Origin: a virus
Taxonomy: Duplodnaviria > Caudoviricetes
Length of the DNA stretch: 64,000 bases
Direction: 5' to 3' (one strand)
Virus record (IMG/VR): IMGVR_UViG_3300021255_001866
Location: 1 to 64,000 of that record
In this document: piece after piece, positions 21,741 to 43,930 of the stretch
How positions within the stretch are numbered: position 1 is the first letter of the stretch
Layout: every line of letters begins with the position of its first letter
Program-made: the position numbers and the translations under genes
The notes under the pieces: generated by a model
Seen by the model: the letters and a program-made list of their open reading frames with translations, nothing else
Told to the model about the DNA's origin: nothing
Database searches by the model: none

Positions 21741-21852
21741 TTTTATGATATAATGTATATATAAAATAAGATGAATCTATGAAGCATTAAAAGAATCATT
21801 GAAATATTATATTATTATTCCAAGAAAATTACTTATATATGAAGGTGATAAT

Positions 21853-22470
21853 ATGGGATATATTTATATAATAAAAAATGATATTAATGATAAAGTTTAT
21901 ATTGGCCAAACTTCAAGATCTATTGAAATTCGTTGGAAAGAACATGTTCGCCATCATGGTTAGTTAATAGATGATGTAATTCATAAATATGGAAAAGAAC
22001 ATTTTTATATAGATCAAGTTGAAGAATGCGCTGATGAAGAGTTAGATTTTCGTGAATAGTATTGGATAAATTATTATAATTCATTACAAAATGGATATAA
22101 TTTAACTAGTGGCGGGAAAGAGAATATAACTTATACAAATAATAAAGTATAGGAAGTTTTATCTTTATGGGAAGAAGGTTTAACAGTAAATCGTATTGTG
22201 CAAATTACAAAATTAAATGTTGAGACAGTACGTAATTATTTAAATAAAAATGGAATAGATCATTAGCAGATTAAAGATAGAGCCAATATTTTCATTGGTG
22301 CAGCAAAAGCTAAATAGATTGCATAGTATACGTCAGATGGAGATTTTATTTAGTTTTGGCCTTCTACCGCAGAAGCTGTACGAAATGGTTATACAAAATC
22401 TAGTATATAGCGTAGTTTAAAAGATGGCTTGCCACATAGTGGATATATATGGAAAGGAGTTAATGAATGA
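21853..22470 (+). CDS. GIY-YIG endonuclease with NUMOD1-like C-terminus (TAG=Gln)
   Basis: GYIYII..YIGQT..RE[TAG]YWI..GYNLTSGG..IA[TAG]YTSDGDFI[TAG]FWPS; TGA overlaps the ligase ATG. Confidence 0.85.
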
Positions 22471-24603: not shown

Positions 24604-24652
24604 CTTTTAAGTAAATATATGATATAATATACATAAAGTAGGAGGATACTTT

Positions 24653-25627
24653 ATGTATATTTTTTTAATTTTAGGTTGTATTTTGATGGCGGCCGGTGCA
24701 TGGATGATGTGGAAGGGCCGTAAATTAGAGTAGTAGACTGTTGCAGAGATTTAGATTAAATACAAAGATGAATTAGCAAAAGAGCTAGCAGAATTTACTG
24801 ATGCGTGTAATAAAACTGAAAAGGCGTTAAGAGAAAGGGTTGAAGTTGCTAAATAGAGAGCGGCAGAAGCATAGGAACATACAGATACGCTTGTTGCGGC
24901 TGAACAATAGCGGCTGGCCGCGGAACTTCAACATAAAAAAGAATTGGAAGAAGTTAAGATATAGCAAGAGCATGAGAAGCAGATAGAGTAGTTAAGATTA
25001 CTCTACTAGAGAGAAGATGGAGAATTACATGCACAGTATGTATTAAAATAGGCGAAATATTAGAGAGATATAGATTAGTTGAAAGCTGAATTTGATGAGT
25101 TTGCCGTTATGTAGTAGGCGGTAAATGAAGCTATACTTCGATAGAAAGAATTGAAAGAGAAAGAAGATTTTTATTCTATTATTGTACCAGAGAATGATAG
25201 AGAAGATATAAAAGTTTTATAGTCAATGGACTTAAAATTACATAATAGAGATGTTATTCCAAAATTAATTTGGGAACTATATATACGGCGACCATGTCAA
25301 GAGATGATTAAACGAGTAACTGGTGGCCGAAAAATTAGTGGTATTTATAAAATTACTTATAAAGAAACAGGAGAAGCATATATTGGAAAGACAACCGACT
25401 TTGCCACTCGTTGGCAAAACCATTGTAAAACCGCTATTGGGCTTGAAGGGGCGGCGCGGGCAACTTTACACAATCGCTTGGGTCAAGATGGTCTTTGGAA
25501 TTACACCTTCGAAATCCTCGAAGAAGTGGACAAAGATAATTTATCCTCACGTGAAGCATTTTATATTGATCTTTACGGAACAAAGTCGCAATTAAACATG
25601 AAGAGTGGAGATAAAAATGGAACTTAG
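24653..25627 (+). CDS. TM helix + coiled coil + C-terminal GIY-YIG domain protein (16 TAG=Gln)
   Basis: AGGAGG RBS; continuous 324-aa frame; SGIYKIT..YIGKT..RW..H at the C-terminus. Confidence 0.85.
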
Positions 25628-26651
25628 TAAGATACAGCAAGAAATAGTAAATACGAATAAACCATATGTTGCAGTCGTTGCGGCGGCCGCGGCCGGCAAG
25701 ACGAGAGTATTAACAGAAAGAGTGCGGAAGATGTTAAAGGATGGGATTAATCCAAAGGACATCGCAGTAATTACATTTACTAATCTCGCCGCACAAGAGC
25801 TACAAGAACGACTAGCCGGTGACTATAAGCCAGGAATCTATATTGGCACAATTCATGGCTTGGCCGCCTACTTTTTACGGCTTAATGGTGTGGATGTCGG
25901 AGAGATGGCTGATAAGAAAGAATTTGATGAGTTCTTTGAGATATTGCGGGCGCATCCGAATTATGTAAGGCATATTCCGCACATACTTCTTGATGAAGCT
26001 CAAGACACATCTCCTAATGAATATGAGTTTATTTTTGATATGATTAGTCCAGATACTTTTTTTGTAGTAGGGGATTACAGGCAAGCAATCTATTCTTTTA
26101 AAGGCGCTGATCCAGAATTGTTTGATAAGTTGATTACCGATCCAGGAGTATCGGTATATAGTTTAAATGAGAATTATCGAAATGGCGATAAAATATTAAA
26201 GTTTGCGAAAAAAGTTCTTGGAAAGAAAAACTCAGTAGATGATTCTATTCCAATGCGGCAAGGTGGTATAGTTTGGGAAGGAGACGCAACACTTTCTAAT
26301 CTAAAGAACTGGATCAAAGAAACTGGGGAATATAAAGATTGGGCAGTTCTTTGTACAACGAATAAAATTATTCAAGAAGTGTGCGGTCTACTTGAAGCAA
26401 ATGGAATACCAACTATCACTTTTAAACAAGGTGAAGTAACAAAAGATCAACTTGAGAGTAATATGAATAGTAATAAAGTAAAGGTTTTAACATATCATTC
26501 TGCAAAAGGTTTGGAATTTCCATATGTTGCCGCTTGGAAACCAAAGAATTGGGGCGGAGATGAGACTGATAGAGTCAATTATGTTGGAGCTACACGAGCA
26601 AAAGATGTATTACTTTGGATGAAAGAAAAAAAGAAGAGTAAGTGGTTTTAA
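25617..26651 (+). CDS. UvrD/Rep-family SF1 helicase (compact)
   Basis: AAAGKT, DEAQD, VGDYRQAIY, NYR, TYHSAKGLEF, YVGATRA. Confidence 0.9.
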   Translation: MELSKIQQEIVNTNKPYVAVVAAAAAGKTRVLTERVRKMLKDGINPKDIAVITFTNLAAQELQERLAGDYKPGIYIGTIHGLAAYFLRLNGVDVGEMADKKEFDEFFEILRAHPNYVRHIPHILLDEAQDTSPNEYEFIFDMISPDTFFVVGDYRQAIYSFKGADPELFDKLITDPGVSVYSLNENYRNGDKILKFAKKVLGKKNSVDDSIPMRQGGIVWEGDATLSNLKNWIKETGEYKDWAVLCTTNKIIQEVCGLLEANGIPTITFKQGEVTKDQLESNMNSNKVKVLTYHSAKGLEFPYVAAWKPKNWGGDETDRVNYVGATRAKDVLLWMKEKKKSKWF

Positions 26652-42768: not shown

Positions 42769-43079
42769 AAACCTATTTTGAATTTCGTGAGACAAGTAAT
42801 AATGGTTGGACTATTTGTCCAGTTCATAAAGAGTGGATTGGAGAAGATTTCTCAAAGCCGATAAAAGGTAGTTTTAATTTGTTAGCTTGTAGGGTGTCTG
42901 GACTTAGCTGGCCGCAATGGCTTCGGTATTGTCGTCAAAATGGTGCTTCTTTATATGGGAAGGGACATAAATATGTAGTGGCTGTATGGAGAGAACCGAA
43001 TAAAGCTTTCCTTACAAAACTTAACCAGCGGGCTAATGACCTTGCGAAGATTATTGATTTTAAGGAGTTGAATCTATAA
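42765..43079 (+). CDS. hypothetical protein (GTG start)
   Basis: GTGA overlap with the upstream stop. Confidence 0.6.
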   Translation: MKTYFEFRETSNNGWTICPVHKEWIGEDFSKPIKGSFNLLACRVSGLSWPQWLRYCRQNGASLYGKGHKYVVAVWREPNKAFLTKLNQRANDLAKIIDFKELNL

Positions 43080-43213
43080 TGGATAAGCAGATCTTTAAGA
43101 AGACTGGCGAAGAACTTCAAGAGTTTTTGAATTTTAGGAAGAGAGCCAATAGAGTACCAAGTAAGAAGGGTAAAGGTTCATATAATCGTAAAGATTTTAA
43201 GAAGGGAGAATAG
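43079..43213 (+). CDS. ArfA-like small basic protein (44 aa to TAG; 54 aa to 43243 if TAG=Gln)
   Basis: AAGGAG RBS; MDKQIFKKTGEELQEFLNFRKRANRVPSKKGKGSYNRKDFKKGE contains the KKGKGSYxRK ArfA motif. Confidence 0.6.
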   Translation: MDKQIFKKTGEELQEFLNFRKRANRVPSKKGKGSYNRKDFKKGE

Positions 43214-43214
43214 G

Positions 43215-43427
43215 ATGGATGTAAAGCTATGCCCGAGATGTAATAAGTTGCCAAATATTAAGGTGAAGCATAAACTTAGATATATGTGTGTTATGAGTTG
43301 TGGTACACTTGGGTGCAAGTTGTATTATCCCATTATTACACTTGGTTTTAATAAAGAGAAGACAATGAAGAAGGCGGCCGAGCGATGGAATGCTGCGGTT
43401 GATAGATATGATGATTTAGTTCTATAA
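43215..43427 (+). CDS. Lar-like zinc-finger small protein
   Basis: CPRC..CGTLGC..AAERWN. Confidence 0.6.
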   Translation: MDVKLCPRCNKLPNIKVKHKLRYMCVMSCGTLGCKLYYPIITLGFNKEKTMKKAAERWNAAVDRYDDLVL

Positions 43428-43442
43428 AGGAGAGTGATGTAA

Positions 43443-43930
43443 ATGTCCTTGAAGATTCTCTTCTTGGATGTTTAGCCCGAAAGGGCAAATAAGTAGATGG
43501 AGTATTAAATAATAATCGAACTCGTACTGTAACATTCGATGGATGGCGTTTTGTTGATGATTATCTAGTTGAACGTTTAAAACAAATAATTGATGCCACG
43601 GGCGCCAAGATCGTATTAAGTTCTACATGGCGGGATGGTTGGAATAGAGAAGATGAGTCTAAGAATGAACCATTCTTTAACCAGCTCAGAGATAAACTCA
43701 AAGAGTATGGAATGGAAATTTGGGATGCTCTTCCAATACCTGTGCGGTCAAGTCGTGGCATTGCTATTAATGAATGGTTTAAATTACATAAAGATTTAAG
43801 TATCGAATCTTTTGTAATTTTAGATGATTGGTATGACATGGGTATATATAGAGATTATCTTATTCAAACAAATGGCGGTATTGGCCTCACCGATGAAGAT
43901 GTACAAGAAGCTATTAATATGCTTAATTAA
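43443..43930 (+). CDS. HAD-family phosphatase (RNA-repair 'Swiss army knife' HAD type), interrupted by a 23-nt insert at 43473-43495
   Basis: MSLKILFLDV|DGVLN..IVLSSTWR..FVILDD; removing 23 nt gives an exact 155-codon frame. Confidence 0.85.

Follow-up and report, generated by a model that had tools for sequence, protein, structure and literature searches.

The locus under study raises the question of how a gene could yield an intact protein when its catalytic motif is interrupted by 23 nucleotides that begin with a stop codon. The window, as we call the whole stretch of DNA that was analysed (64,000 nt), makes up the opening 64 kb of a contig that has 89 kb, a GC content of 36% and 11 tRNA genes, and its source is an uncultured ruminant-gut phage; public runs sharing small parts of the stretch carry the labels sheep, goat and bovine gut metagenome, and no RNA run was among those listed. 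The insert, TAGCCCGAAAGGGCAAATAAGTA, occupies positions 43473-43495 (+) and lies inside the DxD motif of a HAD_SAK_2 phosphatase gene, whose neighbours are a metallophosphoesterase gene and a Lar-like zinc-ribbon gene, with tRNA genes downstream.

The gene is preceded by a leader (43426-43442, +), delimited by alignment with relatives, that holds an AAAGGAG Shine-Dalgarno and the spacer GTGATGTAA. Starting at 43443, its 5' end reads ATG TCC TTG AAG ATT CTC TTC TTG GAT GTT, followed by TAGCCCGAAAGGGCAAATAAGTA; this first frame, ORF1 (43443-43472, +), encodes the ten residues MSLKILFLDV, including the nucleophile Asp of HAD motif I as judged by frames and Pfam, and its last two codons are GAT (43467-69) and GTT (Val; 43470-43472, +), here called the take-off codon. 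The in-frame TAG right after it (43473-43475, +), which stops the upstream frame and would stand as a stop or slow codon in the A site, is present in all eight HAD gap variants described below. The downstream frame is closed by a TAA (43490-92) and open only from GTA (Val; 43493-43495, +), the first codon of that frame after the TAA and the putative landing codon; coding then continues with GAT 43496 GGA GTA TTA AAT as ORF2 (43496-43930, +), which begins DGVLNNN, has 144 codons plus TAA (43928-30) and carries motifs II-IV of HAD_SAK_2. Take-off GUU and landing GUA differ in the wobble base alone, and the gap contains no other GUN triplet before the landing codon. ORF2 (144 aa) matched Pfam PF18143 (HAD_SAK_2) with an E value of 1.2e-21 over profile positions 7-139, the absent positions 1-6 being the piece found in ORF1 (first strand and nucleophile Asp). 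Membership of the family is also indicated by the motifs LSSTWR and ILDD, invariant in the alignment of relatives, and motif I is whole only when ORF1 and ORF2 are joined exactly across the gap. Re-reading of the sequence and translation of its frames agree with the initial annotation, which had described a 23-nt insert splitting ILFLDV-DGVLN, beginning with TAG after a Val codon, containing a GCCC-GAAA-GGGC tetraloop hairpin and ending in GTA, and had stated that its removal gives an exact 155-codon ORF (10 + 144 codons, stop included). To this description we add a stem that reaches the take-off codon, shorter versions of the element in relatives, and its position at the joint of a GIY-YIG cassette.

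The insert is supported by Logan contigs of a single sample, perhaps the source sample itself: two of its runs contained the insert, one contig spanning the whole stretch and the other covering 43438-43913 gap-free. In sample S2 no contig crossed the insert and one ended 4 nt into it; intact relatives were present in a second sample of the same study. An assembly or sequencing artefact would be compatible with support that comes from contigs only, in both runs of one sample that is possibly the source; nevertheless, the two runs gave the insert independently, a near-identical 23-nt element was present in an unrelated metagenome contig (L105) and the 5- and 7-nt versions occurred in many assemblies, which makes an artefact extremely improbable. 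The 12-nt hairpin, allowing up to one mismatch, had one copy in the window against 0.06 expected, and a blastn comparison of the locus with GenBank phages gave no match.

The closest homologues of the gene, 84-91% identical, are intact, have 152-155 aa and share the N-terminus MKILFLDVDGVLNNN. Across the relatives, the gap at the identical codon boundary measured 0, 5, 7 or 23 nt. The 5-nt gap read TAGTT in L005-L010, L015, L093, L103 and L109-L115, TAGTC in L004 and TAGCC in L099; the 7-nt gap read TAGCGTC in L017/L091 and TAGCGTT in L101; and a second 23-nt form, TAG CCC TACG GGGC AAATAA GTT, was found in L105. Every gapped allele had ATT or GTT before the gap (RTT in the take-off position) followed by TAG, with coding resuming at GAY GGN, and the triplet just before the resuming GAY was GTT, GTC or GTA in seven of the eight variants, the exception being GCC in L099. 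For every variant, it took an exact hop to obtain the family motif D-[VI]-D-G. Moreover, the junction ATTTAGTT was invariant within the L005 clade, with adjoining synonymous sites varying. As for chance matches, they made up 8 of the 15 hits of the pattern search in metagenomes, and a pattern scan of genome contigs returned seven of them and no HAD gene. The products that gene callers gave for the gapped genes were of 113-133 aa (e.g. 126, 118, 114) or 175 aa, wrong frame, the practical point being that such genes are shortened or mis-started by these programs.

Gapped alleles correspond to the intact gene plus the gap, a recoded version of codons 1-10 and a leader of ~24 nt that supplies a new Shine-Dalgarno as well as ATG TCC. 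This leader insertion is common to the gapped alleles of the clade, the intact siblings having an ATGA overlap with the upstream gene, and the synonymous sites of ORF1 in the window are unlike those of the intact siblings. When L015 was compared with L014, identity was 91-99% on both flanks and 61-73% within the leader and 5'-end patch. The fullest structure was found in the 124-kb L091/L165 contig, where an orphan HAD 5' end is followed by a nuclease ORF and then by the gapped gene. The orphan end has a normal ribosome-binding site and reads ATG AGG GTA ATC TTT CTT GAT GTC GAT GGA, then TAG TAA TAA; the nuclease ORF (229-1077, 282 aa, nine in-frame TAGs) gave matches to GIY-YIG, NUMOD1 and an I-HmuI NUMOD-like domain, and its stop lies within AAGTGAGGTGATGCGGTCC; the gapped gene begins ATG AAA GTT ATT TTC TTG GAC GTT TAGCGTC GAT GGA GTA. 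L101 has the same gap and leader as L091 without the nuclease, and L019 is intact, also without it. A nuclease ORF beside its target, with alleles that carry it and alleles that do not, is the arrangement of a free-standing GIY-YIG cassette. Because L091 has the full structure, L101 the gap without the nuclease and L019 the intact gene, sequence comparison identifies the gap as the 3' joint where a GIY-YIG homing-endonuclease cassette, inserted in the DxDG-coding site, meets the HAD gene, and the element of the window as a derivative of such a cassette without the nuclease; no nuclease ORF was found at the HAD locus of the window. One relative retained the nuclease gene, and a search for more L091-type endonuclease copies beside HAD genes returned the L091 contig only.

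In L091 the orphan 5' end (L091:146-190) consists of MRVIFLDVDGIIFL and then TAG TAA TAA, with its own ribosome-binding site retained; it may help the nuclease to be translated or may simply be left over. The region 3' of the HAD gene in L005 was considered as a nuclease gene and ruled out on inspection. A target-site duplication was likewise rejected as the origin of the match between the codons on either side of the gap, these pairs being often non-identical (ATT/GTT, GTT/GTA, TCT/TCA).

By analogy with T4 MobA/gene 60, the gap may protect against cleavage by the nuclease. The cassette supplies, along with the gap, a ribosome-binding site of its own and the recoded opening of the gene; the gap would break the presumed nuclease target and a ribosomal hop would preserve the protein. 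The genome has since lost the nuclease gene.

Another outcome of the same origin would be that the cassette joint inactivates a dispensable HAD gene, with ORF2 staying intact through recent recombination and not through translation. Gap state does flip often relative to the divergence of the gene, gapped alleles all have an intact sibling close by, intact relatives occur in the same study and the gene is accessory. On the protein tree, gapped and intact alleles were interleaved (11 changes of gap state versus a shuffled mean of 12.3), and because of this the selection signal could partly reflect recent intact ancestry or recombination. Even so, a second lesion was found in none of the 14 distinct gapped alleles (144-149 codons each; that of L105 is cut by its contig end). 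The dN/dS ratio was 0.07-0.18 among gapped alleles (unsaturated pairs, dS 0.5-1.5), 0.06-0.15 between gapped alleles and intact siblings and 0.05-0.14 among intact alleles; gapped alleles are thus constrained as intact ones are at dS 0.3-1.5. Also against a null allele, all eight gap variants are stop-first and seven of the eight have a near-cognate end triplet, unlike random scars; the hairpin is retained with a different stable loop; and dnaE of the same phage has the same kind of gap. We regard inactivation of the gene as unlikely.

The dnaE gene lies on the minus strand and carries its gap in the PHP motif. It reads from ATG 3255 to CAT AAC, followed by the 11 nt TAGGGTTGAAC (3216-3206) and by CAC AGC GAT TAT, so that ORF1 (3255-3217, -) has 13 codons, ORF2 runs from 3205 to the window start, and the joined product would read MKTKIEYPGSLHN|HSDYS. 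The part 3' of the gap matched the PHP domain from profile position 5, and AAC serves as both putative take-off and landing codon (AAC-TAGGGTTG-AAC). Among dnaE relatives, 18 of 49 loci had gaps of 8-11 nt starting with TAG or TAA, at two sites, and many others were intact: gaps at the first site were TAGGGTTGAAC, TAGGGTGAAC, TAGGGTGAGC or TAGGGAGC, and those at the second, located five codons downstream after TCT, were TAGCGTCA, TAGGTGATCC or TAAACGAACT. Several dnaE gaps are Shine-Dalgarno-like, TAGGTGATCC being one example, and some variants have the non-matching AGC after AAC. In a scan of the 89 kb for TAG-first gaps with a closed downstream frame, the dnaE and HAD sites alone stood out. 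Loss of the replicase would probably not be tolerated by a phage, and since dnaE, which is essential, carries the same kind of gap, it can be expected that TAG-first gaps are decoded. The ORF upstream of the gapped dnaE was evaluated as a possible nuclease and turned out to be a D12 methyltransferase.

How the two HAD ORFs would be joined was approached by comparing the products of the different recoding events. A -1/+2 frameshift cannot join them, because the downstream frame does not open before GTA 43493. Across the variants, -1/+2 or +1 frameshifting gave DILVDG, DIVDG or DVSVDG, none of them DxDG, and in the window TAA 43490-92 stands in its way. A take-off from the Asp codon was also discarded, as the motif would lose "VD" and the tRNA, moved by +5 from GAY, would find no codon to re-pair with. 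If splicing or editing took the 23 nt out of the transcript, the whole protein would result, and re-initiation downstream of the gap would give an N-terminally truncated one; against the former, the 5- and 7-nt gaps at the same site are shorter than any known intron, and a stop as the first triplet fits a translational event and not splicing; against the latter, there is no ATG, GTG or TTG near the 5' end of ORF2 and the shortened product would be without the nucleophile Asp. We hold both to be very unlikely.

The reading that we consider probable, on comparative grounds, is that the 23 nt are a compact programmed translational bypass, whose likeness to the T4 gene 60/MobA cassette is one of analogy and not of homology. 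The ribosome would read ORF1 (MSLKILFLDV) and pause with peptidyl-tRNA-Val on GUU 43470-72 and UAG in the A site; the peptidyl-tRNA would re-pair with GUA 43493-95 and decoding would restart at GAU 43496. The product would be an intact HAD_SAK_2 phosphatase with the motif ...FLDVDGVLN..., the N-terminus MSLKILFLDVDG and, if the hop is exact, the tryptic junction peptide ILFLDVDGVLNNNR. Programmed hopping had already been proposed in the initial annotation, and the proposal gains comparative support from the series of gaps, purifying selection, the retained stem and the gap in dnaE; the hop itself and its efficiency are inferred. Against it, an ORF1 of 10 codons leaves no room for a nascent-peptide signal in the style of T4 gene 60, GUU and GUA are synonymous and not identical, the end triplet of L099 is the non-cognate GCC, and some dnaE variants have AGC after AAC.

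The RNA around the gap is predicted to fold. A 35-nt stretch at the gap gave -9.5 kcal/mol with a z score of -2.9, and none of 200 shuffled sequences folded as well. The take-off stem-loop, UGUUU[A]GCCC-GAAA-GGGCAAAUA (43469-43491, +), has a core stem pairing 43475-78 with 43483-86 and a GNRA loop at 43479-82; the take-off codon lies inside the stem, and the G of TAG starts the core helix. L105 gave the same fold, with a UACG loop replacing GAAA and with the GCCC/GGGC stem and the AAATAA kept. This conservation of the hairpin refers to two sequences with an identical stem, and what is compared is a swap between two stable tetraloop classes, the stem being unchanged, and not true covariation. 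The GGG at 43483-85 (+), 7 nt 5' of the landing codon, may act as a mini Shine-Dalgarno, a suggestion based on the spacing reported for gene 60 homologues (bioRxiv 10.1101/2022.08.31.505936), and it is followed by the AU-rich CAAAUAA before the landing codon. A 5' stem-loop around ORF1 (43443-43471, +) was also predicted, a suggestive feature in which AUGUCC pairs with GGAUGU over an inner stem GAAGA/UCUUC; the 59-nt fold had -18.3 kcal/mol and a z score of -2.6. Pairing of the start region AUGUCC with GGAYRU 5' of the gap had z scores of -2.6 to -4.2 in three of four gapped alleles, and the outer stem was retained in 10 alleles with the five-nt gap, where covariation is weak and confounded by coding.

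The meaning of the TAG in this genome bears directly on the hop. A tRNA with anticodon CTA is encoded at contig positions 65398-65468, outside the window; it has a normal 7-nt anticodon loop and at most 57% identity to any other tRNA of the genome. Many long ORFs hold several in-frame TAGs (reading TAG as Q was used as a reading aid only), and family matches span in-frame TAGs in the endonuclease at 21775 and the D12 methyltransferase. This tRNA(CUA), together with such matches, supports TAG being a sense codon in at least part of the genome, in line with the recoding suggested by the initial annotation. If tRNA(CUA) decodes the UAG of the gap, ribosomes would run on to TAA 43503-05, which could count against the hop. 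One speculative and rather doubtful reading is that the gap is a sensor of code state, with the hop working only while UAG is unread, before tRNA(CUA) accumulates, and later read-in to the gap stopping at TAA/TGA; if true, early genes (dnaE and the HAD phosphatase) would be switched off, the mirror of late genes that need TAG suppression.

The TAG-rich ORFs of the window include two GIY-YIG endonuclease ORFs, 21775-22470 and 24623-25630 (+), with 8 and 17 in-frame TAGs, and the D12 adenine methyltransferase ORF, 3555-4328 (-), with 2; TAG-rich genes here thus comprise selfish nucleases, beyond late structural genes.

Natural bypassing has been described in T4 gene 60 and its topoisomerase-gene homologues, all tied to MobA (bioRxiv 10.1101/2022.08.31.505936), and in the byps of Magnusiomyces mitochondria, with a likely case in a Streptomyces phage (PMC5009743). 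According to the same review, shorter counterparts have been "long presumed" and none found; no natural in-frame stop-hop is known, the short "stop-hops" coming from constructs only (PMC5009743). As in gene 60, the take-off codon of the split HAD gene is immediately followed by UAG and forms part of a stem-loop, which is closed by a stable tetraloop (GAAA or UACG in the HAD alleles, UUCG/UUUG or GNRA in gene 60 and its homologues). In gene 60 a single tRNA can read both the take-off and the landing codon, and the same may hold for GUU/GUA here, with their wobble difference; in both systems a G-rich triplet stands 5-7 nt ahead of the landing site and an AU-rich spacer is present. Both insertions hit invariant catalytic residues, and both are physically linked to homing endonucleases, with "hit and run" alleles that are without the nuclease. 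However, the sequences are not homologous, the gap has 23 nt (5 or 7 in relatives) and not 50, the host gene encodes a HAD phosphatase and not a topoisomerase, and take-off comes after 10 codons. The linked nuclease is of the GIY-YIG/NUMOD type, the phage recodes TAG, and the present case is known from sequence alone. With its 23-nt gap, its HAD_SAK_2 gene and the GIY-YIG + NUMOD nuclease of L091, the element falls outside the homologous gene 60/MobA family. T4 gene 60 requires a nascent-peptide signal located about 14-30 residues before take-off, which is further upstream than the 10 codons of ORF1 reach.

The 5- and 7-nt relatives, RUU UAG UU and GUU UAG C GUC, resemble the stop-hops, in which the peptidyl-tRNA lets go of a codon that adjoins a stop or slow codon and pairs again within a few bases on its 3' side (PMC5009743); the E. 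coli events are engineered or adventitious and of low level, whereas the sites described here are natural, conserved and would be needed for the protein. With the byps of Magnusiomyces capitatus the element shares inserts of tens of nt, an unreadable A-site codon and imperfect take-off/landing matches (PMC5009743), but byps are present as 81 dispersed mobile copies in one mitochondrial genome, whereas here there are two sites in 89 kb, the insert is unrepeated and its hairpin is unique in the window; moreover, the insert belongs to a bacteriophage and goes with a homing-endonuclease cassette. In the likely Streptomyces phage case, too, a phage gene is interrupted by a short coding gap and the A-site codon is slow, this codon being a rare sense codon and not a stop; gene and host are different. 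In the literature searched, we found no description of a compact natural TAG-first gap of this kind.

Natural bypassing being almost unrecorded beyond T4 gene 60 and one yeast mitochondrion, the locus offers a natural series of gaps of 0, 5, 7 and 23 nt at a single codon boundary, in which hairpin and nuclease gene are each present in some alleles and absent from others. Together with the second site, in an essential gene, it would open the minimal requirements of a hop to study with small reporters, and hopping without a nascent-peptide signal and in competition with an amber-suppressor tRNA would become testable. As to immunity, a role that we infer, the idea that homing endonucleases shield their own genome by means of a bypassable insert in the target would be extended to a non-homologous cassette.

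Other features of the region were recorded. The segment 39254-41041 (+) contains a 595-codon frame that is open only with 11 TAGs read as sense, and its comparison with PHROG gave no match. Just upstream of the HAD gene, positions 43079-43213 encode a conserved basic ORF of 44 aa (MDKQIFKKTGEELQEF...), syntenic in L091, L101 and L105, followed at 43215-43427 by the 70-aa Lar-like zinc-ribbon ORF, which matched PF14354 with an E value of 1e-5, just below the curated cutoff.
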